Below are positions 4,044-33,919 of a DNA stretch of 36,189 nucleotides, in pieces. Source of the DNA: an uncultured Candidatus Saccharibacteria bacterium (GTDB lineage: Bacteria; Patescibacteriota; Dojkabacteria; J137); contig CAZRHM010000001.1 in NCBI GenBank assembly GCA_964599845.1, forward strand, positions 1 to 36,189, written 5' to 3'. The notes under the pieces were generated by a model. The model made no database searches. It was not told the origin of the DNA and was given only the letters and a program-made list of their open reading frames with translations. Each line of letters starts with the position of its first letter. Positions within the stretch are counted from its first letter, which is position 1. The position numbers and the translations under genes were made by a program.

Positions 4044-4793
4044 TTGATGACAGCGCAACGTTTATTAGTGATTGCATGTACTAAACGAAAGAAAACCGAT
4101 GTGGGTGAGTTGCCAGCATTATACAGATATGACGGCCCCTCTTTTAGAGTACTTAGGAAGTATATTGATCGCAACCCAGAGGATGCAGGACAACTAGATA
4201 TTTTTGTGCTTTCGGCGCACTACAGACTAATCGATGCCAGTACAAAAATTTCGTATTACGACACTCTCATGGACAATGAACGAGCAAATTCGATGAGAGA
4301 TGAGGTCACTGCGTCGTTGACCAAACAAATCACTTATAAGAGCTACAACTCGATATGCATTGCTTTAAGCAAAAAATATAGTCAAGCGGTTGGTGATCTT
4401 TCCCACCTTGCCACACCAGTGTCTAGGATACAGGCACCGCAAGGTGAGTTTTTAGCACTACTTAAAAAATGGCTGTGGCGGGTAAGTTCGAGCGACACAG
4501 ATGAACGTCACACCTTAAACGCAAATCGCAAAAGAGGTATGACTACGCTACGTGGAGTCCCAATTCACTATAGCATCAACGATGTTTGGTCAGTCGTGGA
4601 GAAAAAAATATCAAGTGAACATCCTGGCATGTACAACTATCGCAACTGGTACGTTGAATTCAAAGGCCACCGTCTTTCTCCCAAATGGATTGTGAGTAAT
4701 TTAACCGGTATTCCGGTGGGAAGATTTACTGCTGGCGAGGCACGACGGGTCCTTCACCAGATTGGCATCAGCTGTAGAAAACTAGAAAACTAG
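4044..4793 (+). CDS. Hypothetical protein with a DUF6884/YaaA(DUF328)-like N-terminal pattern and a putative C-terminal DNA-binding module
   Basis: N-terminal motifs are 'LLVIACTKRKK', 'LPALYRYDGPSFRVL' and 'IFVLSAHYRLID...ISYYD'. The C-terminus, 'WYVEFKGHRLSPKWIVSNLTGIPVGRFTAGEARRVLHQIGI', resembles small DNA-binding modules seen on restriction-related proteins. The family call rests on pattern memory only. Confidence 0.45.
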   Translation: MMTAQRLLVIACTKRKKTDVGELPALYRYDGPSFRVLRKYIDRNPEDAGQLDIFVLSAHYRLIDASTKISYYDTLMDNERANSMRDEVTASLTKQITYKSYNSICIALSKKYSQAVGDLSHLATPVSRIQAPQGEFLALLKKWLWRVSSSDTDERHTLNANRKRGMTTLRGVPIHYSINDVWSVVEKKISSEHPGMYNYRNWYVEFKGHRLSPKWIVSNLTGIPVGRFTAGEARRVLHQIGISCRKLEN

Positions 4794-4807
4794 CGAAAGA
4801 TCACAAT

Positions 4808-5977
4808 ATGGATTCAGTAAAGCACGTCACATTAGGTCAAAAATCAATAGTTACGCCCTGTGTAGTTGCCAGTTATCGCATCAATGACTTTCCACGAGCA
4901 GGGTTGTTATGTCATCCATGGCAATTAACCGACACACAAAGCGTGCTGGTAAATGCTTACGATCTCCTGGCAAATCCGAGAACCAAGAAATACACTGAAG
5001 ACATCAGACAGCGAGAACACAAACTCCACGACCATATAGAATTTAGTGGACCGATAATCCTTGATTCAGGGGCATTCAATTTTCTAAAAGATGAGAAAGT
5101 TTCCATTGAAGCAACTGATGTCCTGAACATAGGTATCGAAATGGAAACTGACATGGCAGTCGTGCTAGATCACCCTTTTCCCCCACATCTTGCGAATACC
5201 GAAGAGATGCAGGTGCGGTGGGGCAATACTATGCGTAATACACGCGAAATGTTTGAAGCACTTGGAGATCATACTCGACCTTATCTTATGCCGGTATTGC
5301 ATGGACATGATCATGCCACTCTGCATCGAGGCCTAGATGAACTTATCAATTTCTTGGGGCATGAACCGCATGTTATAGGTATAGGGAGCTTAGCGCCAAT
5401 AGCGCAAAATGGCAGTAAACATACCGCAATTGATGTATTATTAGCAGTTAGAAAATTACTTCCGAATGCACATATTCATTGTTTTTCGATGGGTTCTGCA
5501 TTACTGATGTTATTGGCCTTCTATTGTGGGGCAGATACTGTCGACTCTCAGACCTGGATACTGAGTGCTGCATTCAAACAGGCGCAAATGCCTGGATACT
5601 ACATAACACGGTTATCGTACAAAGAGCATCAGAAGGACAGCGAAAAATATACGGCTGCACGCAACAGGTTTGCTGAACACCTTCTCCATTTGGTAGAGCA
5701 TAATTATTGTGTGCGTGACTGGATAAGCGGCGAGCCTTGGATTATAACTACGCACAGAGACGCATTAAGTTATGTTGACTATCTAGAAGATCAGCAGGAC
5801 TTAAATCGAGTTCACCAGCGTGCGTGCCATAATTTGTACTCGTTTAACTTTGAAGCGAGAAGTTATCGTGAAGAACTTATCAACGGTAACGTAGAAGACT
5901 TTATTCGGAAACGCGTTGCAAAAACAAAATACTCAAAAGTATTTGAATACGCAGTACAGCAAAAACACAAGGGCTGA
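4808..5977 (+). CDS. TGT-fold (queuine/archaeosine tRNA-ribosyltransferase superfamily) enzyme; DpdA-like putative DNA-guanine transglycosylase
   Basis: Motifs appear in the TGT order: 'IILDSGAFNF' (cf. DSGGFQ), 'VIGIGSLAP', 'CFSMGSALL...CGADTVDSQTW' (cf. G-x-D-x-FD-x with the nucleophile Asp) and C-terminal 'VHQRACHNLYSF...FIRKR' (cf. HNL...). No CxCxxC zinc motif is visible. The genomic context includes queC and yhhQ. Confidence 0.75.
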   Translation: MDSVKHVTLGQKSIVTPCVVASYRINDFPRAGLLCHPWQLTDTQSVLVNAYDLLANPRTKKYTEDIRQREHKLHDHIEFSGPIILDSGAFNFLKDEKVSIEATDVLNIGIEMETDMAVVLDHPFPPHLANTEEMQVRWGNTMRNTREMFEALGDHTRPYLMPVLHGHDHATLHRGLDELINFLGHEPHVIGIGSLAPIAQNGSKHTAIDVLLAVRKLLPNAHIHCFSMGSALLMLLAFYCGADTVDSQTWILSAAFKQAQMPGYYITRLSYKEHQKDSEKYTAARNRFAEHLLHLVEHNYCVRDWISGEPWIITTHRDALSYVDYLEDQQDLNRVHQRACHNLYSFNFEARSYREELINGNVEDFIRKRVAKTKYSKVFEYAVQQKHKG

Positions 5978-5980
5978 TGG

Positions 5981-7825
5981 ATGTCAGAGATTTCGAAAAT
6001 CTACACTAACTACGGCGAGTCTCTCCGCTATTCTCAAGTGAAATACACGGACTTATACAGTGAAAGGGCATCGAACGCGGCAGAATTTTATAATCAGTTC
6101 TTCCACAACCTTACAATTCCGTTCTCAGAATTGTTCGAGGATGCAGCCCAGCGTCGACAAATCCATCGACAGATAAATCGCTTCTTTGGCGGTGAGAAAA
6201 TCGACTTTGTAGCGATCGATGGAACAAACTTTAAAGACCCTTTTCAAGACTTTATTGTCTTTTTTGCTTGTGCATATGGATCAAAGGGGCAAGTTAACCT
6301 CACAAACGACCCACCGCAAATCAATTATGAGCGGTGGTCACTTGATAAAGACGTATCTATGGTTACTTACGTACCGATTCCATTCGCCGAATTTGCAGAT
6401 GTTGTTGACCAAGACAGGCTTGAAGACTTTTTGGTATCGGACGGAGATTATATCAACTTTTCCAACATCGATACGCAAATAATGGCGTTAGCGGAAGTAT
6501 TCCTGGCATATAATGTGGCATCATCCTCACTGATTGATGCCCCAAAATTGATCCTGATGGATCGTTCTCCTAGTAGCATGATTGCTGATGTGGCTGTAAA
6601 TCCTGAACAGTTGCCGATGCTAGACTATCCGTTTGACCGTCGGCGACTCTCAGTTGCCGACGCAAGAGTTGTGATGGCCCACCCGTTCAATGAAAATCTG
6701 GGAGTTCCAACTCTGAAACGCTTCCGTCAATACTCAGCACTTATTGCTGAGTTTCATAACCGACGTACTCAACGTATCAATTTACCAGAATACGCTCTGA
6801 AACACGGCCTACGTGTAAATGATTTAACCGATGCACTACGTTTGCTTGAAAGAAGTGAAATCGGCCCTCCATTCGCCAGACGCGAAGGTGACTGGTTAAG
6901 AACGGACATTGATGTTCGCGCTTCATGGGATTACTGTGTCGGACTTTTTGAGAGTATCTGTCGCAGATTGTTCATCGAAAAAGATCAGACTGCTTTAATC
7001 TACGAAACACGTGACGAAGCTGGAGTTCTGCGGATGCGTTGGATGTCACCAGACGACATTCGTTTTCTTACAGCCATCGGAATACGAGTGTTGATTGAAA
7101 AGTGTTGGGACAAAAAAATCTTACTCACGGGAATAATCAAGGATTCAGCCTCGAAGTATTTGACAAGAAACTATCTTGGAACGATGAAGTTGCTTGGCAG
7201 CAAAGGCTATCCAGAACTCAATGATTTACAGATCAAACTGCTACCATGGACTGACCGGATTTTCTTAGAACTATTGCCACTGATTGATGACGAGTTGCAA
7301 GCACCATGGAGTTCTATCGAGTTTGATTCAATGTATATGACGGTACACGCTAGAACGGATGAACACAATCGACCTATCATTAGTGGTGCCCGCAGTGTTT
7401 TTGTGGCACCGGAGCGATTATTTGCACGTTCGCTAGGGCAGTTCTTCTTGAAACGCGACAAATCGACACCCCTCATGGGGCATGTTGTGTTTATTGATCG
7501 ATTGCTATTTCCCGATTGGGATGCAGATGCGCTTAACCAGGTAGAAATACAAAACCGTTTACTCGGGAAAATTCAGCCTTTGTGCTATAAGACACGCGAT
7601 GATGTTAATATTGGTCAAAGGATCAATATGTATCTACTTAGTGTATTAACACGTAATCACTTCCCGGAGGTTATTGGTTATCCTGATCCACTTCACAAAG
7701 CTGACTGGGGTGCAAAATCAGTTGGCGAACGTGCTCGTAAACTGATTGCCTCAAGTACATTTTCATTTCGGTCCCAACCTCTGAGTAGGACTTTTCGGAA
7801 TATTCGAGATTCTTTCCACCGTTAG
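5981..7825 (+). CDS. NurA-like nuclease-domain protein (614 aa)
   Basis: Motif order resembles NurA: 'FVAIDGTNF', 'LILMDRSPSS', 'LTGIIKDSASKYL', 'IGYPDPLHKADWGAKS'. It lies immediately upstream of a HerA-like ATPase, which is the classical NurA-HerA pairing. Confidence 0.55.
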   Translation: MSEISKIYTNYGESLRYSQVKYTDLYSERASNAAEFYNQFFHNLTIPFSELFEDAAQRRQIHRQINRFFGGEKIDFVAIDGTNFKDPFQDFIVFFACAYGSKGQVNLTNDPPQINYERWSLDKDVSMVTYVPIPFAEFADVVDQDRLEDFLVSDGDYINFSNIDTQIMALAEVFLAYNVASSSLIDAPKLILMDRSPSSMIADVAVNPEQLPMLDYPFDRRRLSVADARVVMAHPFNENLGVPTLKRFRQYSALIAEFHNRRTQRINLPEYALKHGLRVNDLTDALRLLERSEIGPPFARREGDWLRTDIDVRASWDYCVGLFESICRRLFIEKDQTALIYETRDEAGVLRMRWMSPDDIRFLTAIGIRVLIEKCWDKKILLTGIIKDSASKYLTRNYLGTMKLLGSKGYPELNDLQIKLLPWTDRIFLELLPLIDDELQAPWSSIEFDSMYMTVHARTDEHNRPIISGARSVFVAPERLFARSLGQFFLKRDKSTPLMGHVVFIDRLLFPDWDADALNQVEIQNRLLGKIQPLCYKTRDDVNIGQRINMYLLSVLTRNHFPEVIGYPDPLHKADWGAKSVGERARKLIASSTFSFRSQPLSRTFRNIRDSFHR

Positions 7826-7833
7826 AGGTTTAC

Positions 7834-9660
7834 ATGTTTCTTCAAGGACTTACGGGCATTCTTATGCGGGTTGAGGAAGATGAAATAACTCGCTATCGTT
7901 TTGAAGTCTGGTTCGATTATACACGCGGGGCCATAAACACTATTGGCGAAGGAACGATGATTGTTGTTCCAAACTTTGCGAGTAGCGACAAAAACGGTTT
8001 CCATTACAGTGTGCTCGAAGTAACTGGACTTTTGCCAATGCATTACGCACTGGGCAGTGATGTGAGTGGCTATCCTGGTTTTGTAGCTGAAGCAGCTCGA
8101 AATGCGGGTTTAGATTGGCTAAGTCAGGAGACAACATCGACCGAAGAAACGACGAAAATTCGTTGTATGGCAATACCTACTAATCTTGAGATTGTTGAAC
8201 CAGACTTAACAATCGAACGTGAGTTGAATCTACCCATGGTGGGACATCCCGTAAACGTGTTAGACACAGAGATGACCGAAAGAGTTGCTAATCTCAATCT
8301 AGACCTGGAGCACGACAGTCTGATTCAAATCGGCAATTTAGTTCGTGACTCAGAGGTTAGAGCGTGGCTCGAAATCGAAGGATTGCTAAAAGTTCATTTT
8401 GGAATATTTGGCTTTACTGGTGCAGGCAAATCCAATCTGTTGAGCACCTTAGTTAGCAAATTACTGTCACAACAAGAAAATCAAGAACAGCCTGTCAAGA
8501 TAGTAATTTTTGACCTGATGGGTGAATATACAGGGCTACTGATTGATCAACTCTATCTTTCGTCCAATTCCTATATTGTTAATCTTGGCGTAGAAACACT
8601 CCCTGAGTCTATTTTAGATTATTATCGTGCTAAGGCAGGCGGAAGTACAAACGGTGGTGAATTACGTACAATGCTTGAAAAGGCTACACTGGATCTCAGT
8701 AAGTCTCTTATCTTGCCCAAAGCACTGAAACAAAGTCAGGACGGGCTCCATTACCCTCTAGCGATTCTCTTGCACCAAAACCGCGTTGTCTTCCTGAGTG
8801 AAAAACATGAAACGGCAGGCAGTGTTATCGCCAATTTCGAATTTTCAGGCAATATGGGCAATTGTGCTACTGAAGTCTATAAGTTTAGACGAGAACTACA
8901 AAAAGAATTTGCTGACTCAGAGATTGATCAGAGTTTGCTCGACCAGCTCGAAAAACGCATCGAAAACTTTAAGAATTACCTGGGTAAAACTATCACACAA
9001 ACCGCAATAAAGAATCTTGACACCCTTTATGGTCAGTTTGAGGGCATTGCTGCACAACCAAGAGCGGAAATCCCTGCAAATGCCCAAATCAGCTTAGGGA
9101 AACTCATCAGCATTCTGAACAATGATGAAAATGCATTGTTGATTGTTCAGTCTGCTGATCCGGATCGTCTTCGTGAGTTTGTCGGCGTGATGTCCAATGT
9201 TGCTTATGATGTACGTCGGCGCGAGGGTCGTATAACTCCCTTAGCATCCTTCATCTTTGACGAAGCTGATGAATACCTCCCACAACAGGCAAATGACAGT
9301 CAGAAACGCAGCAAAGCGGCAATCACTACTTTGGCTCGTCGTGGCAGAAAGTTCGGCTTAGGAATTGGTATAGCAACCCAACGCATCCGTTACTTGGACA
9401 CAAGCATTCTCGCACAACCACACACATACTTCATATCGAAACTTCCAAGGAAGGCTGATCGTGATGCTGTTATGGAGGCTTTTGGCATGTCAGAAGATAT
9501 GTTTAGGCAGACCTTCAAGTTCAGGAAGGGAGACTGGTTACTTGCGAGCTATGATGCCGCAGGTTTAGAGGCGATCCCGATACCGGTACACCTTGAGAAC
9601 GCTGAAGAACGTCTTCTTCGCTTCTTGCGAGAAATTGCAGAGAAAAGAGGTGAGGATTAA
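7834..9660 (+). CDS. HerA/FtsK-type (DUF87) hexameric ATPase
   Basis: Walker A is 'GIFGFTGAGKSNLLS' and Walker B is 'SFIFDEADEYLP'. It also has the HerA-type 'ARRGRKFGLGIGIATQRIRYLDTSILAQ' segment. The true start could be the internal Met in 'MRVEEDE'. Confidence 0.8.
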   Translation: MFLQGLTGILMRVEEDEITRYRFEVWFDYTRGAINTIGEGTMIVVPNFASSDKNGFHYSVLEVTGLLPMHYALGSDVSGYPGFVAEAARNAGLDWLSQETTSTEETTKIRCMAIPTNLEIVEPDLTIERELNLPMVGHPVNVLDTEMTERVANLNLDLEHDSLIQIGNLVRDSEVRAWLEIEGLLKVHFGIFGFTGAGKSNLLSTLVSKLLSQQENQEQPVKIVIFDLMGEYTGLLIDQLYLSSNSYIVNLGVETLPESILDYYRAKAGGSTNGGELRTMLEKATLDLSKSLILPKALKQSQDGLHYPLAILLHQNRVVFLSEKHETAGSVIANFEFSGNMGNCATEVYKFRRELQKEFADSEIDQSLLDQLEKRIENFKNYLGKTITQTAIKNLDTLYGQFEGIAAQPRAEIPANAQISLGKLISILNNDENALLIVQSADPDRLREFVGVMSNVAYDVRRREGRITPLASFIFDEADEYLPQQANDSQKRSKAAITTLARRGRKFGLGIGIATQRIRYLDTSILAQPHTYFISKLPRKADRDAVMEAFGMSEDMFRQTFKFRKGDWLLASYDAAGLEAIPIPVHLENAEERLLRFLREIAEKRGED

Positions 9661-9662
9661 AG

Positions 9663-10115
9663 ATGCTGGTATATGTTGCAGGACCGTTATTTAGTACGCA
9701 TGAAAGACGGTATCTGGAGGAAATTGCTTCTAAATTGGAGGTCAATGGATTTCAGACATTTCTTCCTCACCGTGATGCTGGACTACTAGATGGTGACAAC
9801 AGCATTGATCGCCAAGACTTATTTCAAGCCGACCTCAAAGCACTCAAGCACTGTGAAATAATTGTTGCCCTTCTAACCGGTCCAGATCATGATTCGGGAA
9901 CATGTGCCGAGTTAGGTATTGCTTTCGCTCAGAATAAACTCTGCTTCGGAATCACAGACGATATGCGATGGCTAAACAACATGATCTGGGGTATATGTGA
10001 TCAGGGGAGACGCATTGCAACAAGCCCTGACAAGTTAGTTGCGATGCTTCTAAGCTTCACAAAGACATCTCAGTCAGCAAGTGAAAATGGATTGAACGAT
10101 ACTGCTCGATCATAG
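9663..10115 (+). CDS. Nucleoside 2-deoxyribosyltransferase-like (NDT/Rcl-fold) protein
   Basis: It has 'MLVYVAGPLFS' at the N-terminus and 'IIVALLTGPDHDSGTCAELGIAFAQNK', matching the D-x-G-T-x-x-E-x-G catalytic Glu signature of this family. Confidence 0.7.
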   Translation: MLVYVAGPLFSTHERRYLEEIASKLEVNGFQTFLPHRDAGLLDGDNSIDRQDLFQADLKALKHCEIIVALLTGPDHDSGTCAELGIAFAQNKLCFGITDDMRWLNNMIWGICDQGRRIATSPDKLVAMLLSFTKTSQSASENGLNDTARS

Positions 10116-10762
10116 ACATCAATACCCTCTTGTTGCTTTATGTGTCTAATTACGGTATAGGTGAGGGGTGTTGCAGCAGCTTCATAGACCGATTTAAATA
10201 TCCATTGAGTTAGAATCGCTGAAAGCATGGCACCAGCTGGAGTGGTCCCTACAAATGCTATTGCTATAAATAGCAGAGAGTCCAATCCCTGCCCTACAAT
10301 AGTCGATCCTATCGTTCGTAACCACAGGTAATGCCCTTCAGTAGCAACCTTTAGCCTAGATAAGACAAATGAGTTTGCAAATTCCCCTACCAGAAATGCC
10401 AGAAACGATGCAAAGAGTAGCCGAGGCGTATAGCCAAGAATTGTTTCATAGGCCTCCTGTCCTCCCCAGAAAGATGCGCTCGGTAACGCCTGCCCAACCA
10501 CAATAGCCAGCACGGTTATAAGGTTACATGAAAAAGCCAGCCAGATGATGCGCCTTGCCTGTTTATATCCGTAGACCTCGGTCAGAACATCGCCAACGAT
10601 ATAGCTGATAGGAAATATAACGATTCCTGCTGGGACTATTAGCTCTCCAAACTGCACCAATTTTACAGCTATAATGTTTGCGGTAATTAAGCTCGTGATA
10701 AATAAGCTGACGATGATTACGAACCAGATTGAGTAGCGTTGCTTTTCGACAGTGGTTTTCAA
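10070..10762 (-). CDS. yhhQ: Queuosine-precursor (preQ0/preQ1) transporter, YhhQ/DUF165 family
   Basis: It is a multi-pass membrane protein with 'VIFPISYIVGDVLTEVYGYKQARR', the hallmark of the YhhQ family. Its 3' end overlaps the convergent NDT-like gene by 46 nt. Confidence 0.8.
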   Translation of the reverse strand: MKTTVEKQRYSIWFVIIVSLFITSLITANIIAVKLVQFGELIVPAGIVIFPISYIVGDVLTEVYGYKQARRIIWLAFSCNLITVLAIVVGQALPSASFWGGQEAYETILGYTPRLLFASFLAFLVGEFANSFVLSRLKVATEGHYLWLRTIGSTIVGQGLDSLLFIAIAFVGTTPAGAMLSAILTQWIFKSVYEAAATPLTYTVIRHIKQQEGIDVYDRAVSFNPFSLAD

Positions 10763-10786
10763 GTTTGTTGTCTCCCTTATCCTGGA

Positions 10787-11455
10787 TTACAAATACGGTA
10801 TTGGATCACATAGGCCTAGCTCTTTGAAGGCTGCCAATCGTTCAGCACAGGTAGGGCAGACACCACAAGCTACCTTATCACCCTGGTAACATGACCAAGT
10901 TTGGCTGTAGTCAACATCAAGGTCAAGTCCGACACGCAAAATATCTGCTTTAGAATGCTCTACAAATGGTGCAGAAATCTGCACCGGGTTTTTCCTGTTG
11001 AGCGCATACACTTTATTCAGTTTGTTCAAGAAATCAACTGTCGTGTCCCAATATCCATACATATCCTGACGTTGAGCACCGTAGAAAACAGTATCAACCT
11101 GTAAGGTTTCTGCATATGCCACTGCAATTGACAAAAATAGCATATTTCGGTTTGGTACATATGTGGAAGGTTGTGAATCACCTTGAACAGCATCTATGGT
11201 AGGAATGCTTATGTTGGAGTCAGTCAGAGCCGATCTGCTAAGGACATCCCTCAACGATGCCAAATCAATTATACGATGCCTTGTAATTGCGAGCTGTTTT
11301 GCATGATATTCAGCGCATGATATTTCACGATTATGTTTTTGCCCGTAGTTGAAAGTGATTACACTCGGATGCCTACCCCCTTTCTTGACCAAATAATATA
11401 GTAGTGTGACACTATCCAAACCACCACTAACTATTACAATGCAATCGACATCCAT
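10787..11455 (-). CDS. queC: 7-cyano-7-deazaguanine (preQ0) synthase QueC
   Basis: Motifs are the 'VIVSGGLDSVTLL' PP-loop, 'TFNYGQKH', 'YVPNRNMLFLSIA' and the C-terminal zinc cysteines 'CYQGDKVACGVCPTCAER'. The start was moved to ATG 11455 ('MDVDCIVIV'), because the longer ORF would overlap the upstream nuclease gene. Confidence 0.85.
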   Translation of the reverse strand: MDVDCIVIVSGGLDSVTLLYYLVKKGGRHPSVITFNYGQKHNREISCAEYHAKQLAITRHRIIDLASLRDVLSRSALTDSNISIPTIDAVQGDSQPSTYVPNRNMLFLSIAVAYAETLQVDTVFYGAQRQDMYGYWDTTVDFLNKLNKVYALNRKNPVQISAPFVEHSKADILRVGLDLDVDYSQTWSCYQGDKVACGVCPTCAERLAAFKELGLCDPIPYL

Positions 11456-11487
11456 ACTTTTTTCTAGTCTCTTCGTACTGGTGTAGT

Positions 11488-12483
11488 TTATGGGTACCGC
11501 ATCTTGATCTTTTTTGGTGTAGGGCAATTCCACCGCAGATCACAGATATTGCAGTCCTGATCACTGATTGCGCCTGGTTTTGCAGGAGGAAAGTAATCCT
11601 GCAAGCGAGCCAACTCAATGTCTTCTACCGTTCTAGCAAATGCTTCCATTGCCTCATCAATTTCGGGTGTATTCAGTGGCACTTCCATTATCGCATTCAC
11701 AGGTCTTTGCTGCGGTGGCCTATCTCCATCCAGTTCATTAATGAAGTACAGTATTGCACGCTTCGGACGGACACCATGTTTCCACTCATAAAGCCTCGAA
11801 TACACTTGCATCTGAAAACGATATGTTTCTATATCGCGAGGCTTTAAGTTAAGAGGGTCCACACCTTTGTAGTCCCAAATCTCACAATCAGAATACTGAT
11901 TCGATTCTGTTTCAGGATTTACCAGCAAGTCCACAACCCCTTGAACAATGTGGTCTCCCCTATCAGCCTGTAAGCGATGCTCCGTATCCTGTACACGAGG
12001 ATATAGCTCGGGCCCCTCAAGAGCATTGAAGTATTGTAACACTCGAACTGCTTTTAGCCTTAGATCTGATGTAATTGCCCTAATTCCCCGGCTTTTTAAG
12101 CCATTTTCGACCTCTATGAAGTATCTTACTATATCGCCTGGTGCATCAGGAACCTTGGTGTCCTTGGTTTCTGCTTCTTTAAGCTCTTCAAAGTATTCTT
12201 GAATAACTTCATCGGCGATAGGTATACAGTTATCTGGGAAATTGCCCTTTGTACTTGCATCAATTAAACCCAAATAGTGTGTGTGGCAACGATCCAGTAC
12301 CTGATGAATGATTTGCCCAAAGTAGAGTTGGGTTTGATGTGCAGGCGCATAGTTGTAAACTCGAAACGCACCGTACTGACGTGAGCAGCGGCGAAAAGCA
12401 ACTATATCTGTAGTCAGGCTATAGCGTCGCTTAACTGGATTTTCTGCGCTTTTAGGAACTTGAAAGTTAAACGGCCCGGTCAT
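11488..12483 (-). CDS. PD-(D/E)xK nuclease, Cas4/RecB/AddB-like with a four-Cys (Fe-S) cluster
   Basis: Motifs are 'FRRCSRQY' (first Cys), 'VDLL...CEIWDYKG' (D...ExK), 'QMQVYSRLY' (QxxxY) and C-terminal 'CNICDLRWNC'. The start was set at ATG 12483, 13 nt after the helicase stop. Confidence 0.75.
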   Translation of the reverse strand: MTGPFNFQVPKSAENPVKRRYSLTTDIVAFRRCSRQYGAFRVYNYAPAHQTQLYFGQIIHQVLDRCHTHYLGLIDASTKGNFPDNCIPIADEVIQEYFEELKEAETKDTKVPDAPGDIVRYFIEVENGLKSRGIRAITSDLRLKAVRVLQYFNALEGPELYPRVQDTEHRLQADRGDHIVQGVVDLLVNPETESNQYSDCEIWDYKGVDPLNLKPRDIETYRFQMQVYSRLYEWKHGVRPKRAILYFINELDGDRPPQQRPVNAIMEVPLNTPEIDEAMEAFARTVEDIELARLQDYFPPAKPGAISDQDCNICDLRWNCPTPKKIKMRYP

Positions 12484-12496
12484 GTGAATTATGCCT

Positions 12497-14683
12497 TTAG
12501 ATAAGTGTCGGTCGGTTAGTCGTTCTTCGGAAGTGAGTCGCATCAGGAATTGCGATATTGTTCGTGATCTGTGACGGCGTAGCAACAATCATCAAACCAT
12601 ATTGTGCGCGTGAATAGGCAACGTAGTACAGTCGGATGTCATCTTCTCGTGCTAGTGTTTCAGGCGGTCGAGTTGTGCGGGCATAGATTTCATCTCGGAA
12701 TGGAGTAAAGTCTCGTTCGATAATTTGCGCTGGACCTACTCGTGGATTGCTTCCAATGTTCACCAAAATGACAAACGGAAATTCTAGCCCTTTAGATTGA
12801 TGGATTGTCATCAAGGGTAAATAGCCTTCTGGCACGATCACATCTTCGTCTTCGTCATCATCAATGCCAGCATTCATGAGATAACTGATAAACGTATAAT
12901 AGAAACGCTCTCTGAAAAGCTCATTCAGATCTGTACCATCTTGATTAACGCGCAAAGTATCCAAATTGAGGCTGTGGTAACTCTCAAACAACCTCGTTAC
13001 TTTCGACAAGCGCATATTGCGCTCAGGATTTTGTTGCCAAGTTGGAAAAGGTTCGAGCGATAACAGACGGTAAAGTATCTCCATTATATTGAGTTGTAGG
13101 AAACGATTAGGATTTTCACGGCAACGATCTATAAGACTATTAGTGCTGAGGGTGATATATTCGGTCAAAGAAGCAAGATCGTAATTGTTATTGTTTTGAA
13201 GATCAATTAAAGTCTGAATCCAGCTTTGAACCGTGGCGGCTAAGTCACGAGTACGAATATTCAGAAAAGTAGAGTTAGGATCAATCACCTGGATGAGACT
13301 TGCCAGCAGTGTTTGTACTTCTTCGCTTTCCATAAATGATTTTGATCGTGGGTTATAGAACGGAATTCCTCGCCGATTAAATTCCTCCATAAAGGGGCCA
13401 GCATTACGTGGTGAATCTTTGGTGCTTCGCATCAAAATAACACATTGGCTGAGGTCCTCGATAACATTGTCTCGAAGATATTCAACGAAGTCAGCTAAAA
13501 CGATACATAAGTCTCCTGCTCTATTGGTTTGTAACCAATTGACTGCTGGATAGTTACCTGTAATTGTGGATGCAGCATTAATTGGCTGCTTATTAGGAGC
13601 ACGGACTCCGGCAACTCGCATTTCGGGCGAACTTGCAATGTAAGCATTAAAGAAATCTACGATTTGCTCATGTGAACGATAATTCTTATCTAATTGAATC
13701 ACGTGTGGGGTAACACTGAATTCTGCCTGCATGGCCTGATCGAAGTTTACCATGCAAGCTACTGATCCACCTCGGAAACGATACAGCGCTTGATCATCAT
13801 CACCGACAACAGTAATGTTATGAGGTTTATTCCGAGCCAGCGCGAGATAGATACTTTCTTGTATCGGATTTGTATCTTGATATTCATCAACCAAAATATA
13901 GCGTAATGGTTGATTACGTTCTCCATCACCTTCAATAAATCGTTGGCTTGCGTCACTCTGAATGAATTCCAGGAACCGTTGCTGTAAATGAGCGAAGTCA
14001 CAACGATAGTTATCCCTTAGTGCTTGTTCGTATTGTTGGTAGAAATCCGCCAATGTTGCCCAATGTCCACCAGCAGCACGCATCACATGAAGGTTTACAC
14101 GATCCTCAACGATATGATTGAAGAGAATCATTGCTGCATTTGTTCTGCTCCAGCGACTTGGTGTCCAACCGGAATTACGAGACCACATGGGAATAGCATA
14201 TTCAAATTCTGCCCAGAACGAGTTGTCATCATGCTGCGCTATTTCGGCGTGTCGATATGTAAAAAGACTCTGTTCGACAGATTCAAGCAGACGCACATTT
14301 TGATAATCAGGATAACGATAATCATGCATGATATCGTTGCAAAGACTATGAATAGTGCCAACCCGTAAATCCGCGAGGTCAATTTCACGAAGAGATTGAT
14401 CAGCTTTTTGCAGCAAGACCATGTATGTGGCAAGACGATCTTCAAGATTGAGTGCTGCCTTTTTTGTAAAGGTTGTGACCATTATAGACTCAGGAGGGAT
14501 GCCATCGACACAAATTAGTTTCAACGTGCGAGTTACCAATACTTCCGTCTTACCTGAGCCAGGACCGGCCAAAAGCCAGAGCGGTCCCTCTCCGTAGTTG
14601 ACGGCTGCGAGCTGTTCGTCATTCAGGGGATATCCTCTTGCGGCATCTGTCATCAGACAATTGTGAAACGATATTAAGTCCAT
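12497..14683 (-). CDS. UvrD/Rep/PcrA-family SF1 helicase
   Basis: Motifs are 'LLAGPGSGKTEVLV' (motif I), 'ILVDEYQDTNPIQ' (II), 'VVGDDDQALYRFRGG' (III), 'NYRS', 'MTIHQSKGLEFP' and 'LYYVAYSRAQ'. Confidence 0.85.
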   Translation of the reverse strand: MDLISFHNCLMTDAARGYPLNDEQLAAVNYGEGPLWLLAGPGSGKTEVLVTRTLKLICVDGIPPESIMVTTFTKKAALNLEDRLATYMVLLQKADQSLREIDLADLRVGTIHSLCNDIMHDYRYPDYQNVRLLESVEQSLFTYRHAEIAQHDDNSFWAEFEYAIPMWSRNSGWTPSRWSRTNAAMILFNHIVEDRVNLHVMRAAGGHWATLADFYQQYEQALRDNYRCDFAHLQQRFLEFIQSDASQRFIEGDGERNQPLRYILVDEYQDTNPIQESIYLALARNKPHNITVVGDDDQALYRFRGGSVACMVNFDQAMQAEFSVTPHVIQLDKNYRSHEQIVDFFNAYIASSPEMRVAGVRAPNKQPINAASTITGNYPAVNWLQTNRAGDLCIVLADFVEYLRDNVIEDLSQCVILMRSTKDSPRNAGPFMEEFNRRGIPFYNPRSKSFMESEEVQTLLASLIQVIDPNSTFLNIRTRDLAATVQSWIQTLIDLQNNNNYDLASLTEYITLSTNSLIDRCRENPNRFLQLNIMEILYRLLSLEPFPTWQQNPERNMRLSKVTRLFESYHSLNLDTLRVNQDGTDLNELFRERFYYTFISYLMNAGIDDDEDEDVIVPEGYLPLMTIHQSKGLEFPFVILVNIGSNPRVGPAQIIERDFTPFRDEIYARTTRPPETLAREDDIRLYYVAYSRAQYGLMIVATPSQITNNIAIPDATHFRRTTNRPTLI

Positions 14684-15011
14684 AATGTGAACACCTAGAT
14701 TTAGTTAAAGTGAGAAGCAACATCTGCCTTGTGTAAACTCTATAAATCAACAAACAGGCAGTAACCGTTATCCCAGTTTTTTGGCCTTATTGCTTGAACA
14801 ACTTTCCAAGAAGGATCATAACATAAAACGCTATCCTCATTCATTGAAGGCACCTATATATCTAATCTTGAGAGGTTAGTTTATAAGTCCACTCTATCTG
14901 AGCATCCACAAGTACTCGGATACTCTCGTCCATCACCACGAGTCGGTTTGGATCGTTCTTTTCACGAGACCACACTATATAGATATATTATCCTACAATC
15001 AGAGATTGAAT

Positions 15012-15044
15012 CTGAAAAACTGCATTTCATTCCTGAAAAACTGC
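15012..15044. repeat. Two copies of the 12-bp direct repeat 'ctgaaaaactgc', with starts 21 bp apart; candidate operator
   Basis: The copies lie at 15012-15023 and 15033-15044, in the AT-rich region ~85-115 bp upstream of the RHH gene. A 21-bp period corresponds to two helical turns. Confidence 0.3.
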
Positions 15045-15128
15045 TGACCATACAGCGAAAAAATACAACCGATAATCCTATCGCGTGCATGATAATTCAG
15101 ATAGAGATAAGCCTACCTGGATTATGTT

Positions 15129-18685: not shown

Positions 18686-21334
18686 TTATATAAGCGTCTC
18701 AAATCCTTGATCTGCATTTGGAGGTACAAAATCGGGATCAATGACCATCCTATAATGACCAGCGTTTGCATCTGAGCCTTTTATCATTGTGTAACGCATA
18801 CCACTTGCACCTGCAGTCTGCTGTGCGAACGTCTGCTTTGCCAGCACGACGGGATCATCAACCTTGTTGTCTCCCTTCACCTCAACAATGACATAGCTAC
18901 CATCGTCCAACTGGATCAGAAAATCTGGGTAGTAACTACGAATTGTATGCGACTCGGGATCAATGTATTGAACAAAAAATTCAGATTGCCCATGCGTCAG
19001 CATACCTGTGAAGTATATTCTCGTGACACGATCAGCCCTGAGCAGGTCCCAGAAAAGCGTGTGTTCAGGCGTTGAGTCGAAGCAGTACGGATCAAGATGA
19101 AAACTTTTATTAGTATGATCTGTCACATCATCTCGACGAACAATCAAATCCTTCCGTGCGCTCATTTCGTAGAAGCCTTCGGGAGGGATTTTGACGAGAT
19201 CGACCTCATAGTTTTCGTGACGTTCATACTCTTCAATGTCATATAGCATGTCGAAAAGACGCGGGATAACCCAATCATATAACAGCTCATTGAACTCATT
19301 GACCGCCTTCAGGATACCGGGAATTCTTTCTGCCGTAGACTCAAGGATTTCTTCGATTTCCAAACATGGTTTATTGAGATAGCGAGCAATCTCTGCAACC
19401 AATGAAATGGCGGTGTATTCACGTTTCTTCCTAAACGCAGTGATATCTTCCTCTTTGATCCGTCTCCCTGCTTCGGTTAGTCCTTCTGTCTCACGATGCA
19501 GTAGACGGTACTTTTCTATATCCGCCTTGTCGAACTCAAAGCTGTAGTCTTCTTCAGGTTCACGCTCCACCAAATCGTATCGGCGACGGATGCGGCGCAG
19601 TTTGATTTTTTCTACAGGTTCACTGACCTTCACTTTAACTCGTTCCCGATTATCCCCTCGGCTTTCAAGTTCGTTTACCGATACCCTGAAGTTCTGTTGC
19701 AACTCGTCTTCTAGAATCTCTCGGTTTTCTTCACTGAGATATACATGCCCGGTCTGTTGTCCCACGCCAATCGACCGCAAACAGCGCATGGATGCCTGGA
19801 GGACGAATATCTTTGATCTGGGTTTACGATAAAGGGCCACAGAAAACAGCGACCTACAGTTCCATCCCTCGCGTCCTTTGTTGACAAGAAGAATGAACTG
19901 TTTGTCAGAGTCAGGAGTATCAAGCCGATTAAACTCGCGAATGTCTACACTTGATGTAATCTGATCATCGCCGACATTGACGAGAATTCTGTCAGTAGAA
20001 ATGCCGTATCTAGCGAGAGCAGCCTCCACTGCGGGACGCAACTCATTCTGAAGCTCGTCAATTTGACTCGCGAAGAACGCCATCTTAGGTAATAGTCCTT
20101 CATGCCGTTCATTGAGATCAACATTTTCGAGGAAGTTGTCGATGGCGAAGTTGACGAATTCATCGGACTTGGGATTGGTATAACTGTGAATACGAACCTT
20201 CTTTAGATAGGCCTTATCAATTGCTTCCTGAAGACCAAAAGCATACACAACCTCAGGAAGGATTTGGTTCTTTACATAAGGTGTACCCGTATAGTTGTAG
20301 GCAGCAACTACCTTTGTGCCTGCATTTTTTAGGCTGGTGGCAAGCTCATCAATCGTGAGGGCAAGACTCGTCTTTGTCTTGTTGAGACCCATGTCTCGTT
20401 CGAGTTGGTTGCCAAACGCATGATGAGCCTCATCTACATAGATACCAAGTTGCTCAATGCGACGTAACTTTTCAAATCGCTGATTAGTCGCCAGCTCTAC
20501 CTCATCTTCAGGTTGGTCGAAATCATAGAGATCTTCCAGTTCTTCGTAGACAGAGCCAGATTCATAGGTCGGTCGCCCAAAACCCATTAACATCTCCATT
20601 GGAGATTTCTCTGTATGCTGACGCTTGAGGATGATCTTCTGTGTATTTGAAATGACGATGTTGAAGCGCGATTTATCCAGAATATTGAGCGTCGTTCCTG
20701 CTTCATCCAGGAAGTGAAAACGGATGTTGGTATTCAGCCAATTGACGTATTCCGGTGGAACGACCTTTGTTTTGTCGAATGTCTGGATTTCTCGCAGGGA
20801 TTGTAGTACCGTCTTATCAGGTGCGAAGACTAGGGCATTGTGGCAATAACTTTCGTCTTTAGGGAACTTGTTCGCCAGCAGAAACTCATAGAAAATACAC
20901 GTTGCCATGAGAATCGTTTTGCCGGTCCCCATCGTGAGGGCGAAGATGTAGTTTGAGTATGGTCGACGATACTTACGCATGTATTTGAAGATGTCTTCAA
21001 ATTGTTCTTCTGTCTGCATATCAAACATAGAAAGCTGACGCACGTCCCCACTAACGTTTATTCGCCCCTCGAACTTCCCAGTGTTCTCCATCCATTCTTT
21101 GAACAGCAAGTGGACAGGTTTGTTGTCCAGGTATTCCTTCAGGAAGATATACATTTCCAATGCCTCAAACTGCGGCAGGCGCAGGAAAGAATTGGCATTT
21201 TCTGGGTCGTTGTAGTCCAGGTACTTACGAGTGAGTTCTCGGTAGTTGCGGCGGATGCGCCCCTTGTTGTCCGAGTAAAACTGCCACAACTGATTGAAGA
21301 ACGCGAAGTCCAGTGAGGCGACATTTCTAGCCAT
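18686..21334 (-). CDS. res: Type III restriction enzyme, Res subunit (SF2 ATPase + PD-ExK nuclease)
   Basis: Motifs are 'ALTMGTGKTILMA' (motif I), 'GIYVDEAHHAF' (DEAH box) and the C-terminal 'YYPDFLIQLDDGSYVIVEVKGD' PD...ExK motif. The start was set at ATG 21334 ('MARNVASLDF'), which overlaps the mod stop by 8 nt. Confidence 0.85.
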   Translation of the reverse strand: MARNVASLDFAFFNQLWQFYSDNKGRIRRNYRELTRKYLDYNDPENANSFLRLPQFEALEMYIFLKEYLDNKPVHLLFKEWMENTGKFEGRINVSGDVRQLSMFDMQTEEQFEDIFKYMRKYRRPYSNYIFALTMGTGKTILMATCIFYEFLLANKFPKDESYCHNALVFAPDKTVLQSLREIQTFDKTKVVPPEYVNWLNTNIRFHFLDEAGTTLNILDKSRFNIVISNTQKIILKRQHTEKSPMEMLMGFGRPTYESGSVYEELEDLYDFDQPEDEVELATNQRFEKLRRIEQLGIYVDEAHHAFGNQLERDMGLNKTKTSLALTIDELATSLKNAGTKVVAAYNYTGTPYVKNQILPEVVYAFGLQEAIDKAYLKKVRIHSYTNPKSDEFVNFAIDNFLENVDLNERHEGLLPKMAFFASQIDELQNELRPAVEAALARYGISTDRILVNVGDDQITSSVDIREFNRLDTPDSDKQFILLVNKGREGWNCRSLFSVALYRKPRSKIFVLQASMRCLRSIGVGQQTGHVYLSEENREILEDELQQNFRVSVNELESRGDNRERVKVKVSEPVEKIKLRRIRRRYDLVEREPEEDYSFEFDKADIEKYRLLHRETEGLTEAGRRIKEEDITAFRKKREYTAISLVAEIARYLNKPCLEIEEILESTAERIPGILKAVNEFNELLYDWVIPRLFDMLYDIEEYERHENYEVDLVKIPPEGFYEMSARKDLIVRRDDVTDHTNKSFHLDPYCFDSTPEHTLFWDLLRADRVTRIYFTGMLTHGQSEFFVQYIDPESHTIRSYYPDFLIQLDDGSYVIVEVKGDNKVDDPVVLAKQTFAQQTAGASGMRYTMIKGSDANAGHYRMVIDPDFVPPNADQGFETLI

Positions 21335-23171
21335 GCCGAACCTCCTGCTCCAGTGATTCGGAGAGCAAATCGGTGATCTTGATGCGGATCGTACCAGCAT
21401 CGTCCGGGATGGGGTACTCGCCTATCACCAGTTTGTTTTTGTCCGGTATGTCAACGACAATCGGTTGAAGCACTGCGCCATCGTAATTCCAGTCGATCAT
21501 GATCGACTCAACCAGTTCCCGCCAGTCTTCGACCTTCTCCGCTTGTAAGCTGAGCTTGGATAGCAGGTTCATGGGATAGAATTTCTCAATGACCAGCTTG
21601 CCATCTCGAGTGATGATCTTGGCTTCCGAGTCGCGCTTGAACTGAATTTCCTGCTTATCCCGCAGGATGTCCACAACATCTACATCTAGGATGTATGGTG
21701 AAACCTGTTGTTTGAGATGAGCGGCCAGATCAGGTTCATGCCCCATGCACACCAATGTGATTTTCTCGACTGGGCGATTCGGATGCTCGGCATAGCGGCG
21801 TTCAAACGCTCTATAGTCCATATTGCTGAGCAGGGGATTGAGGTCTTCTCGTGTAGCAATGCGATTGACCGGCATGATCTTGACCATGCGGCCATCTTTT
21901 TCACCATCAAAGAGATGAGCTTCAGCGAGAGGATTAACTTCTAGTGCCTGGATCAGTAAATCACGAGCTTCAACAGGATTGCGAAATACGTCATAGTGAT
22001 TGACGTTATAGACCTCAAATCCAGTATAGTGGATGCTGATTTCATCTTCATCTGTGGAAAAATCAAGTTTCTTCTGACCTGAGTTAAGTTCTTTTGCGAT
22101 AGCAATCAGGCGTTTTGTCGTTGTCTGTATAGCCCCCAAGTTAATGTCCGCGCCGATAAAGCGTCGTCCTGTTTTCATCGCAACGGCTTGAGTGGTTCCA
22201 CTCCCCATAAAACAGTCGAACACTAAGTCGCCTGGCTTTGACATAGACAAGATCACGCGCTCGAGCAACGCCTCAGGTTTCTGTGTATCATAACCTGTAT
22301 CTTCTTTTGCAGAATTGTTCACCTTGTCGAGATTCCACACATCGTCAGCAGGTCTTCCTGATGCCATTGCCTCCTCTAGGTATCTTTTTACTCTTTTCCC
22401 ATTCCCTGCATCAGAAAGAACATACTCCTGCCCTTGCTCATCAACCAGTATCGCTTGTTTTCTAACTCGCACATATTCTTCTTTCGACTCCCAAGGTATC
22501 GCATAAGAATTAAACATAGGCGTACTAGTCTTGCTATAGTAGATGATTACATCGTGACGACGGTTGAAGTATTTATTACCATGACGATTCCAGCCACTGT
22601 AGTGCCACACAATTTCATTTTGAAAGTTTTCCTTGCCAAAGACTTCATCAAGAATAACGCGGAGATAGTGGCTTTGATGCCAGTCACAGTGCAAAAATAC
22701 GGCACCTGAGTCCGTTAGCAATTCTCGAATTAGTATCAATCTCTCATACATAAACTGCAAATACTGGTCGTTCACCCAAATATCTGAATACTGTTTTTCT
22801 TCAAATGATGTTCTGTCACTTGATATCTCACCCCCCCTCAGAGTTATTGTTTTTTTGTAATCAGCCTTTGAAGCAAAGGGTGGGTCTATATATACCAGTT
22901 GGATAGCGCCGCGATACTCTTTCAAGAGATGGCTCATCACTTGGAGATTGTCTCCCCAGTAAATCTTGTTGCGCCATCTGTTAGTTTCAGTACCATAAGT
23001 TTCTCTATGCTGAGCAGGATAATATTGAGTTGATGTAAAAGGCTTCTTTCCATGCCAGTGGAGCATTGGATAGCCCTTGATTGGCTCAAATCTATACTCA
23101 TCAACCCGTTCAAGCGGTTTCTCAGCAGCATCCAGCCCAAGCGACTGCTGTAAGTTATCTGTGTCTGTCAT
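21327..23171 (-). CDS. mod: Type III DNA methyltransferase, Mod subunit (N6-adenine/N4-cytosine, beta class)
   Basis: Motif IV 'LVYIDPPFASKADY' comes first, followed ~220 aa later by motif I 'LVFDCFMGSGTTQAVA'. This motif order, and the position upstream of res, are typical of type III Mod. Confidence 0.85.
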   Translation of the reverse strand: MTDTDNLQQSLGLDAAEKPLERVDEYRFEPIKGYPMLHWHGKKPFTSTQYYPAQHRETYGTETNRWRNKIYWGDNLQVMSHLLKEYRGAIQLVYIDPPFASKADYKKTITLRGGEISSDRTSFEEKQYSDIWVNDQYLQFMYERLILIRELLTDSGAVFLHCDWHQSHYLRVILDEVFGKENFQNEIVWHYSGWNRHGNKYFNRRHDVIIYYSKTSTPMFNSYAIPWESKEEYVRVRKQAILVDEQGQEYVLSDAGNGKRVKRYLEEAMASGRPADDVWNLDKVNNSAKEDTGYDTQKPEALLERVILSMSKPGDLVFDCFMGSGTTQAVAMKTGRRFIGADINLGAIQTTTKRLIAIAKELNSGQKKLDFSTDEDEISIHYTGFEVYNVNHYDVFRNPVEARDLLIQALEVNPLAEAHLFDGEKDGRMVKIMPVNRIATREDLNPLLSNMDYRAFERRYAEHPNRPVEKITLVCMGHEPDLAAHLKQQVSPYILDVDVVDILRDKQEIQFKRDSEAKIITRDGKLVIEKFYPMNLLSKLSLQAEKVEDWRELVESIMIDWNYDGAVLQPIVVDIPDKNKLVIGEYPIPDDAGTIRIKITDLLSESLEQEVRHG

Positions 23172-26071: not shown

Positions 26072-26359
26072 GTAACGTTCCTAAATTACTCTTTGTGGCA
26101 TCGCTTGAAGAGCAGTTTTCAAATTATACCGAATGCTGCCACTGCTACGGTTTTCCCATAATTTATGTTACCGTCACGCTGATGTTCAAAATGGTTTAGG
26201 CTTACTATTTCAGACAATACAGTTGAAGGAAACTTTGAACAAACACAATGCATACCTTGCGAAAATCATCAGGCTACTTTACAACTATATCAGAGATCGC
26301 ATGGATGTACTTGCCTTCTATTCATCAACCAGTGTGGAGTTTTGACATCAGGGGCCTTT

Positions 26360-27256
26360 ATGCTCCACGTCTTTAAACTAGACAAAGCAAATGGGTTCGG
26401 AGACATCGAGGAGTTCTATCGAGATTTCACCCCAGTTCTCAGAGATGATTTGTACCGATCAGCAGTTTTCGACTTGCAAAACATTGAATTCCTAACCCTG
26501 GAAGCGTTGCTAGCCTTGATCTGTGCGAGCAAGTTATGGCGTGAAACAAAAGATGAACCAGTGGAATGGCAAACCAGCGATAAGGTTGCACAGTATCTCG
26601 AACGCGCTGATATACTTCATGTTCTAGCCGATGATATTCTTATCGCTGAACTCCCAGATACTCGATGGGATCGAGGTTCGAGTCTTTCATTAATGGAACT
26701 CCGCGAACTCGCGCCTTCTCCAGAGCAAAACAGTTACGATGTCGCTAGTGTCTTATCCGCAACATCTAAGCTACTGCTGGGGCGTGTCAGTACAAAGCAA
26801 CTTGGTAGTACCAGCACGCTAATGAGTGAGATTGCTCAAAATGTAACGCATAGCACATCTACTGGGTATGCGCTTATACAGTCCTATCAAATCGGAAAGA
26901 AGCATCGGGTTCACATTGGGGTGATTGATACTGGAATTGGGATAAAGGAATCACTATCGCCCAAGTATCCCAATCTGCCTCGTCCTTCTGATTACATTCG
27001 TCTTTCGTTGAAATCAGGTGTTACTTCTAAATTAGAGAGCGATGGCTTGGGATTGTATCAGGTAGAGAACATTGTCAGCAAAGATCGTGGTGCGCTGACC
27101 ATACGTTCTGGAACCGCAATGATCCAGTTCTGTAAGGATAGAATGTATCAGTGGGATGGGCTTGAAAACATACAAGGGACACAAGTCTATATAACCATGT
27201 GGGGACAGTATGAGAGCAAGCTCTGGAACTACCTCTTGCAATCTCCTGACAAATAG
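26360..27256 (+). CDS. GHKL-superfamily (histidine-kinase-like) ATPase, SpoIIAB/RsbW-like, with an N-terminal STAS-like region
   Basis: It has N-box 'SEIAQNVTHS', G1 'IGVIDTGIGIKE' and G2 'SDGLGLYQVENIV'. The N-terminal 'VFDLQNIEFLTLEALLALI' looks STAS-like. An alternative TTG start lies at 26342. Confidence 0.65.
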   Translation: MLHVFKLDKANGFGDIEEFYRDFTPVLRDDLYRSAVFDLQNIEFLTLEALLALICASKLWRETKDEPVEWQTSDKVAQYLERADILHVLADDILIAELPDTRWDRGSSLSLMELRELAPSPEQNSYDVASVLSATSKLLLGRVSTKQLGSTSTLMSEIAQNVTHSTSTGYALIQSYQIGKKHRVHIGVIDTGIGIKESLSPKYPNLPRPSDYIRLSLKSGVTSKLESDGLGLYQVENIVSKDRGALTIRSGTAMIQFCKDRMYQWDGLENIQGTQVYITMWGQYESKLWNYLLQSPDK

Positions 27257-27295
27257 CGTATACTACCCATAAGCAAAATCTGCTTAGAAGGCTAA

Positions 27296-27889: not shown

Positions 27890-27928
27890 TTTTTTCTCAA
27901 TGAGTTAAGCAGTTTTCGCTGAGGGCAT

Positions 27929-31366: not shown

Positions 31367-31368
31367 AC

Positions 31369-33801: not shown

Positions 33802-33919
33802 GAGTTGCTTGCTACTTACAGGTAGCAGGTGTAATTCCCAAGTATCTGCTACCCTTTGCCTATTGCTTATCTCCAAACGGATTGTCAAGCATAAGAAGTT
33901 CATCTCACTAGACAAAAGG

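Follow-up and report, generated by a model that had tools for sequence, protein, structure and literature searches.

When genes for the supply of 7-cyano-7-deazaguanine (preQ0) stand in one string with genes for a DNA helicase and a nuclease, are the two functions tied to each other? The question is raised by a stretch of 36,189 nucleotides (nt), contig CAZRHM010000001.1 of assembly GCA_964599845.1, deposited for an uncultured Candidatus Saccharibacteria bacterium and referred to here, at its full length, as the window. On its - strand, genes for a UvrD-like helicase, a Cas4/RecB-like nuclease, the preQ0 synthase QueC and the transporter YhhQ follow one another and converge on an operon with a DpdA-like gene, the putative writer of a deazaguanine mark in DNA. 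An original prediction, made from the letters of this stretch, proposed that the helicase and nuclease are co-regulated with precursor supply and form the restriction or processing arm of a modification-dependent system, with a role like that of the DpdE/DpdJ helicases. Our reading, to which we give a probability somewhat above one half (roughly 55%), is that the string joins two separately conserved cassettes, helicase-nuclease and queC-yhhQ, and that these, together with the writer operon and a nucleoside 2-deoxyribosyltransferase-like (NDT) gene, would form a mosaic, reduced Dpd-like island in a conjugative-element backbone, with presumed roles in restriction and modification.

Base-by-base reading of the - strand, together with the list of open reading frames (ORFs), confirmed the order helicase, nuclease, queC and yhhQ (Table 1), with gaps of 13, 32 and 24 nt, respectively, and a tail-to-tail overlap of 46 nt between the 3' ends of yhhQ and of the + strand NDT gene. 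The start codons chosen earlier fit the lengths of homologs: the nuclease has 331 amino acids (aa), as does its homolog P0004, and QueC and YhhQ have 222 and 230 aa versus 225 and 231 aa in the related locus L040 (related loci carry L numbers throughout), the TTG start of yhhQ being preceded by a strong Shine-Dalgarno sequence, AAGGGAG. The four genes had also been described as having no terminator between them, and a consensus scan and the folding of the junction RNAs both agree. At none of the three junctions did the scan detect a terminator-like site on the - strand, its sole match on this strand being a weak 5-bp stem within yhhQ (10489-10476); every one of 200 shuffles folds better than the junction RNAs of helicase/nuclease and of queC/yhhQ (z of +3.0 and +2.4, respectively), and a GC-rich hairpin with a U-run after it is absent from the nuclease/queC junction RNA. 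Promoter-like sites on the - strand were found by consensus scan at 15016-14987, upstream of the helicase gene, and at 14255-14228, within it, and nowhere else; the former is the sole promoter-like site placed to drive the string, as a consensus match rather than functional evidence. Since the spacing is tight, the junctions hold no terminators and the promoter-like sites lie only upstream of or within the helicase gene, the simplest reading is that the four genes most likely form one transcription unit. No conserved promoter was seen when the regions upstream of queC from four loci were aligned.

The helicase matches the profiles UvrD-helicase (PF00580, 3e-53) and UvrD_C (PF13361, 1e-24), its motifs I, II and III (GPGSGKT, DEYQD and GDDDQALYRFRGG) are intact, and it is predicted to be a complete superfamily 1A (SF1A) enzyme of the UvrD/PcrA type. 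The nuclease, which has 720 homologs at 50-67% identity, matches PD-(D/E)XK_1 (PF12705, 1e-14). It carries an N-terminal cysteine, C33, and the pattern C311-x2-C314-x5-C320 near the C-terminus, and the RecB-family motifs D185, D204-x-K206 and Q224-x3-Y228 are conserved in an alignment of 24 sequences. Searching the PDB with its sequence profile gave no matches, and the fold search alone was informative: for an AlphaFold (AF2) model built from the 24-homolog alignment (pLDDT of 82.9, the predicted score in the local distance difference test), which includes a helical insert of roughly 100 residues, the best match was the Argonaute-associated Cas4-family nuclease ACE1, followed by AddAB, RecE, Dna2, AdnAB and Cas4. 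The label of a Cas4/RecB-like Fe-S nuclease is therefore a fair one, given the four-Cys signature, the RecB-family catalytic residues and the fold matches. QueC scores 192.5 bits on TIGR00364 (equivalog cut-off 150.3), and its SGGLDS P-loop and C-terminal Cys cluster can be read in the sequence; YhhQ, which matches PF02592 at 5.5e-52, lies above the equivalog cut-off of TIGR00697 (120.2 versus 50.95 bits) and is a predicted queuosine-precursor transporter.

In order to place the helicase-nuclease pair among its relatives, we assembled 35 nuclease-selected loci by a pattern scan, taking one genome per species. A UvrD homolog stands directly upstream of the nuclease gene (Nuc) in 32 of them, the helicase gene being split in 2 and cut by a contig end in 1, and the order of helicase before nuclease is kept throughout the 35. 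Clustering of the neighbouring ORFs revealed a fusion of DpdC and DpdA (DUF6884-TGT, 570-718 aa; DpdCA below) at <=10 kb from the nuclease in 15/35 loci, and a Dpd context, counting the fusion, DndB and DpdE/F markers, in 19/35. With PADLOC, DpdJ (2e-160) and DpdK (3e-25) were identified directly after the pair, and DpdE (7e-263), DpdF (8e-215) and a DndB/DpdB-like protein were found among its neighbours, DpdE/DpdF also directly after it. The cyanobacterial architecture reads DpdCA - c5 - DndB - c10 - (UvrD - Nuc) - DpdJ - DpdK - c13, where c numbers are our handles for neighbouring genes; a HerA-type architecture reads DpdCA - NurA-like - HerA - x - UvrD - Nuc, often convergent with a short DpdA and a DEAD/HhH/SWIM helicase; and a third reads UvrD - Nuc - DpdE - DpdF. 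The most compact cassettes are DpdCA - UvrD - Nuc in L029, where the fusion overlaps uvrD by 4 nt, and queC - queD - DpdCA - UvrD - Nuc in L024, and the c40 and uvrD genes overlap in L014 and L027. At the other extreme are a ten-gene same-strand array in L094 (queC-queD-queE-x-DpdCA-NurA-like-HerA-x-UvrD-Nuc) and a haloarchaeal plasmid on which helicase and nuclease lie beside queC-folE-queE-queD and a 968-aa TGT.

The association is also seen from the side of the writer. Among 80 metagenome loci selected by the fusion, 26 extend at least 8 kb downstream, and UvrD is present in 9 of these; of the HerA-type loci, 10 reach at least 7.5 kb downstream, and 8 of them have the pair. An unselected sample of 400 cyanobacterial genomes holds the nuclease in 3 and the fusion in 9, and in each of the 3 nuclease carriers the fusion lies on the contig of the nuclease, at a distance of 9-19 kb (Fisher p ~8e-6 by our own arithmetic, overstated since the genomes are related). 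In the nuclease tree, Dpd contexts occur in every deep clade, across Bacteria and Archaea, whereas the non-Dpd contexts fall in one derived cyanobacterial clade (12 rows, 99% support in the Shimodaira-Hasegawa-like approximate likelihood ratio test, SH-aLRT), which holds DISARM-like (5 loci), type III (3) and several unassigned contexts. Because Dpd fills the deep clades and the non-Dpd contexts form a single derived one, the association of the pair with deazaguanine writers is, as far as gene neighbourhoods tell, old and broad, and the shift to methylation-based systems came later. We regard the pair as a putative portable module of two genes, motor and nuclease, which would be at home, ancestrally and most often, in Dpd-type clusters.

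A comparative search for UvrD and Cas4-like pairs beside queC, yhhQ and tgt-like genes had been suggested as a check, and its outcome is divided: the linkage to tgt-like or 7-deazaguanine genes stands (the 19 loci above), and that to queC/yhhQ is not conserved. Genes for preQ0 synthesis or yhhQ accompany 36/80 fusion-selected loci versus 4/35 nuclease-selected ones, and all 4 of the latter also carry the fusion. Precursor supply appears to track the writer, not the pair, and its direct link to the helicase-nuclease is particular to the window. A nuclease gene followed by queC-yhhQ occurs in no other examined locus, and the only same-strand arrays holding both queC and the pair are those of L024 and L094, with the writer in between. 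In L040, queC-yhhQ is a separate unit 7 kb from the pair, with the same 24-nt spacing between the two genes; in this locus, as in L108 and L068, queC-yhhQ lies tail-to-tail with the deoxyribosyltransferase gene as a cassette of its own, with the helicase-nuclease not upstream. We interpret queC-yhhQ as a predicted make-and-import cassette for preQ0, conserved independently elsewhere. The role of DpdE/DpdJ that had been assigned to the pair does not fit either, because the pair co-occurs with genuine DpdE/DpdF and DpdJ/DpdK and is thus no stand-in for them; it is predicted to be an optional add-on arm rather than a substitute.

The composition of the island itself points to two sources. Two low-GC islands interrupt a backbone of ~57% GC, at 4044-14683 (43.6%) and 18686-34273 (45.9%), and the first contains both the string and the writer operon. 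The nuclease, QueC, YhhQ and NDT of the window all have their best matches in the island L040, with identities of 67, 65, 70 and 66%, respectively. The DpdA of the window belongs to a free-standing subtype with 412 homologs, which was not found in 400 Chloroflexota genomes. Its relatives in L123-L129 carry a six-gene core, DUF6884 - ~135 aa - ~360 aa - ~305 aa - BrxC/BrxD-like ATPase - TGT, with variable followers that include the 614-aa protein and HerA in L123. The window has none of the four middle genes, so that DUF6884 (4044) is directly followed by the TGT gene, and its writer operon is apparently a reduced form. Since the relatives of the writer operon are without the pair, whereas the nuclease, QueC, YhhQ and NDT match L040, the first island is most simply described as a mosaic of two Dpd-like lineages.

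Several points weigh against our reading and have to be set beside it. The pair is absent from the otherwise identical clusters L043 and L051, in which c10 is directly followed by DpdJ, and in the closest relative, L040, with its 67% identical nuclease, all that is left of the helicase is a 154-aa remnant. A UvrD or PD-(D/E)XK gene was found in 0/7 contexts of the window-type DpdA (L123-L129), and the pairing in the window may be a recent juxtaposition. The related loci on which the association rests are not phylogenetically independent, and the derived clade that accompanies DISARM-like and type III methylation systems indicates that the pair is not tied to deazaguanine chemistry. As regards the single transcript, a promoter within the nuclease gene is possible, and queC-yhhQ may be transcribed alone in the relatives.

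In the working that we propose, QueC and YhhQ would supply preQ0, the DpdA-like enzyme would swap guanines in resident DNA for preQ0, and the DpdC-like protein may convert the inserted base further. The helicase-nuclease would act as a small AddAB that unwinds and degrades DNA without the mark, and HerA with its partner is possibly a second motor module alongside the pair. We infer the restriction role of the pair most of all from the three-gene cassettes of writer, helicase and nuclease, because in them the pair is the only candidate effector. A more general proposal, which we put forward tentatively and consider doubtful as it stands, is that the UvrD and Cas4-like pair might be a portable, writer-agnostic restriction arm: it would be the sole effector of a minimal 7-deazaguanine restriction-modification system in the three-gene cassettes, would have begun in Dpd-type systems and would then have been re-used by type III and DISARM-like ones. 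A role specific to base-exchange chemistry is disfavoured because the pair was later adopted by methylation-based systems. If the writer-agnostic proposal holds, these systems would share a coupling of the motor-nuclease to the modification state of DNA that is independent of reading a particular base.

The pair could also be a self-contained defence or repair module that came to neighbour deazaguanine genes as islands accumulated, with no functional tie beyond a promoter shared by an accident of insertion. Its optional presence in cyanobacterial Dpd clusters would agree with this, as would the loci in which it neighbours DISARM-like, type III or GmrSD genes and the 5 in which it has no recognised partner; in the window, moreover, the + strand operon's relatives (L123-L129) have no pair, and the - strand string's nearest relative is an island of a different type (L040). 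We consider such independence unlikely, given the Dpd context in every deep nuclease clade of Bacteria and Archaea, the overlap of pair genes with writer or partner genes, and the cassettes that consist of writer and pair only; in the unselected sample, too, 3/3 nuclease carriers have the fusion, against 9/400 genomes overall.

Two further explanations leave the pair out of restriction altogether. It might serve modification, with the UvrD ATPase opening DNA for the transglycosylase, as DpdB would in Salmonella, and the nuclease making entry sites or clearing abasic sites or trapped enzyme-DNA adducts, in which case co-expression with queC-yhhQ would match supply to exchange. For preQ0 insertion in vitro, the Salmonella Dpd system needs the ATPase of DpdB (PMC10164549), no DpdB/DndB homolog is present in the window, L029 or L024, UvrD is the sole ATPase of the compact cassettes, and in the window the pair does share its gene string with the supply genes. 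However, the cyanobacterial clusters have both a DndB/DpdB-like gene and the pair, the same architecture exists without the pair, HerA-type clusters possess a further ATPase anyway, the pair has passed to methylation-based systems that have no base exchange, and supply genes follow the writer; this role is in our view distinctly unlikely. That the island is for modification only, a conjugative element marking its own DNA to evade restriction in new hosts, as phages do, and using the helicase-nuclease for plasmid processing or recombination, we hold to be very unlikely. It would be in keeping with a backbone that bears a coupling protein and mobilization (mob) genes, with a writer operon reduced relative to its relatives and with the finding of no DpdD-K homologs in the window, but most related pair clusters are chromosomal and have restriction-type genes (DpdE/F/J/K, PLD, GmrSD), and, unless something is degraded, it is difficult to account for a nuclease with an intact active site next to a NurA/HerA-type module.

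The closest known system is Dpd (dpdA-K) of Salmonella Montevideo (PMC10164549). Like it, the window has a TGT-family enzyme and a DpdC-family protein, DUF6884 having been equated with DpdC (10.1101/2025.02.24.639861), and the window protein scores above the PF21818 cut-off for that family (Table 1). It also has preQ0 genes and yhhQ nearby, as is common for dpd islands (10.1101/2025.02.24.639861), and, for the side presumed to restrict, helicases and a nuclease, the relatives of the pair adjoining genuine DpdJ/DpdK or DpdE/DpdF. In contrast, no DndB/DpdB match was found among the island proteins, whereas the relatives L009, L038 and L129 have one; no protein of either island has a PADLOC match to DpdD-K; the window TGT stays far below the DpdA equivalog cut-off, though it matches PF01702 (Table 1); and its motor-nuclease, a superfamily 1 (SF1) UvrD helicase with a Cas4-type Fe-S nuclease, goes unmentioned in the Dpd papers examined. 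With AddAB, AdnAB and RecBCD the pair has in common an SF1A motor with intact ATPase motifs and a RecB-family nuclease with the AddB-type four-Cys signature, but it has one motor only, a 331-aa nuclease without a helicase domain and a helicase without a nuclease domain, and its genomic context is defence and not recombination genes. The best structural matches of the nuclease are Cas4/ACE1 (PDB 9iab and 9iac, E 6e-7), ACE1 serving a cyanobacterial defence system as accessory nuclease; identity is, however, about 11%, the window nuclease has its ~100-residue helical insert, and the island has no Argonaute gene. A Cas4 adaptation module was considered and rejected, as no cas gene, be it cas1, cas2 or another, is present among the annotated island ORFs and the Cas4 profile match is weak (0.002).

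Dpd-like 7-deazaguanine systems with alternative effectors have been described computationally as BRIGADE (10.1101/2025.09.15.676423), whose type I is reported to be often accompanied by a DNA2-like helicase/nuclease fusion (10.1101/2025.09.15.676423). They resemble the window in the use of alternative effectors, but they are defined by YprA-family helicases and reported in haloarchaea only, and no YprA/DpdJ match was found in the window. The window helicase also matches the GajB profiles of Gabija (2e-44), which reflects general UvrD homology; the GajA partner (OLD ATPase-TOPRIM) was not found in the island, and Gabija was discarded. The HerA/TGT 'BRC' systems constitute a separate assemblage.

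In text searches, no publication came up that connects DpdA, preQ0 or deazaguanine to a UvrD and Cas4-type pair, and the Dpd biochemistry paper PMC10164549 is silent on one; the pair appears to be a regular, so far undescribed companion of deazaguanine DNA-marking systems. What is new here is the pair's presence within clusters having genuine DpdE/F/J/K, its optional character and its probable ancestral context in Dpd, together with the tracking of the writer by the supply genes and the mosaic nature of the window island. Dpd has been called the largest known restriction-modification system, and its restriction side is less well understood than any other part of it; a helicase-nuclease of two genes that keeps turning up with deazaguanine writers would offer a much simpler system for studying how the mark is coupled to destruction, the three-gene cassette being the simplest. 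For the window, the link to supply is local and the island a mosaic on a mobile element.

The backbone of the contig carries a type IV secretion system (T4SS) coupling protein, with distant plasmid relatives (23-27% identity), and the mob genes. The rest of the metagenome-assembled genome (MAG) has 32.7% GC, compared with the 57% of the backbone, the tetranucleotide correlation of the backbone with that rest is -0.49, and the nuclease was found in 0/20 relatives, for which reasons we take it as probable that the contig was binned wrongly or is a mobile element of foreign origin, either a conjugative plasmid or an integrative and conjugative element (ICE). No FolE, FolE2, QueD or QueE was found in the MAG, which is uninformative on the true host because the contig does not match the MAG. 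The mismatch likewise precludes statements on a host-level preQ0 pathway, and the idea of QueC as an orphan step in the host was rejected on the same grounds, the composition and the missing nuclease in those 20 relatives.

Table 1. Features of the window discussed in the text.
Feature	Position	Strand	Remarks
UvrD/PcrA-type SF1 helicase, 728 aa	14683-12497	-	First in the string; stop TAA 12499-12497
Cas4/AddB-type PD-(D/E)XK nuclease, 331 aa	12483-11488	-	ATG at 12483; stop TAA 11490-11488
QueC, preQ0 synthase, 222 aa	11455-10787	-	ATG at 11455; stop TAA 10789-10787
YhhQ/Vut_1 predicted queuosine-precursor transporter, 230 aa	10762-10070	-	TTG start; stop at 10070
NDT-like gene	9663-10115	+	PF05014 3.7e-21
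Non-coding region upstream of the string	14684-15128	-	Promoter-like site (consensus scan only)
Convergent writer operon	4044-9660	+	Pfam, NCBIfam, PADLOC
DpdC-like DUF6884	4044-4793	+	PF21818 41.6 bits (cut-off 30)
DpdA-like TGT	4808-5977	+	PF01702 67 bits; DpdA equivalog NF041059 21.6 bits (cut-off 200)
614-aa protein without family match	5981-7825	+	
HerA ATPase	7834-9660	+	
Fused UvrD and PD-(D/E)XK paralog, 967 aa	23168-26071	-	Second island; Pfam, PADLOC, tblastn

Some minor observations concern the genes around the string. The best terminator-like hairpin of the region (10967-10986, + strand; 8-bp stem with 5 GC pairs, and a T-run) lies antisense within queC, 850 nt beyond the stop codon of the deoxyribosyltransferase gene, and, if it is used, the writer-operon transcript would cross yhhQ and the 3' part of queC in antisense. 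The NDT-like gene turns up repeatedly, either right behind the DpdC-DpdA fusion or in tail-to-tail orientation with yhhQ-queC (L103:2416-2796, L108:4666-5046, L040:17176-17577 and the window), and may belong to the regular set of some Dpd-like systems, with base or nucleoside salvage as one conceivable task. The 614-aa protein is not similar to c26, the NurA-like protein of the HerA-type loci. In L123, which holds the closest relative of the writer operon, HerA is directly followed by genes for a Macro-domain protein and DarT, together a DarTG-type pair (10156-12005).

Among the related loci, a convergent block recurs in which UvrD - Nuc faces a short (~300-aa) DpdA-like TGT and a DEAD/HhH(/SWIM) helicase (L027:7788-14357, L040:9435-14018, L078, L079, L102 and L104); the window has queC-yhhQ instead of the second half. 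In the Nostoc loci L015, L016, L018, L023 and L031, a DISARM-like series of helicase - DUF1998/MZB - PLD is directly followed by UvrD - Nuc and a GmrSD-type enzyme, with no methyltransferase seen within the stretch examined. In the second island of the window, the fused paralog of the pair is coupled to a type III mod-res system and has 26-29% identity to the split pair. The same island contains a five-gene + strand operon at 26342-34273, encoding proteins of 304, 197, 1145, 810 and 165 aa, with weak matches to HATPase_c and DUF4325 only and nothing convincing in PADLOC, which we note as a candidate defence module.

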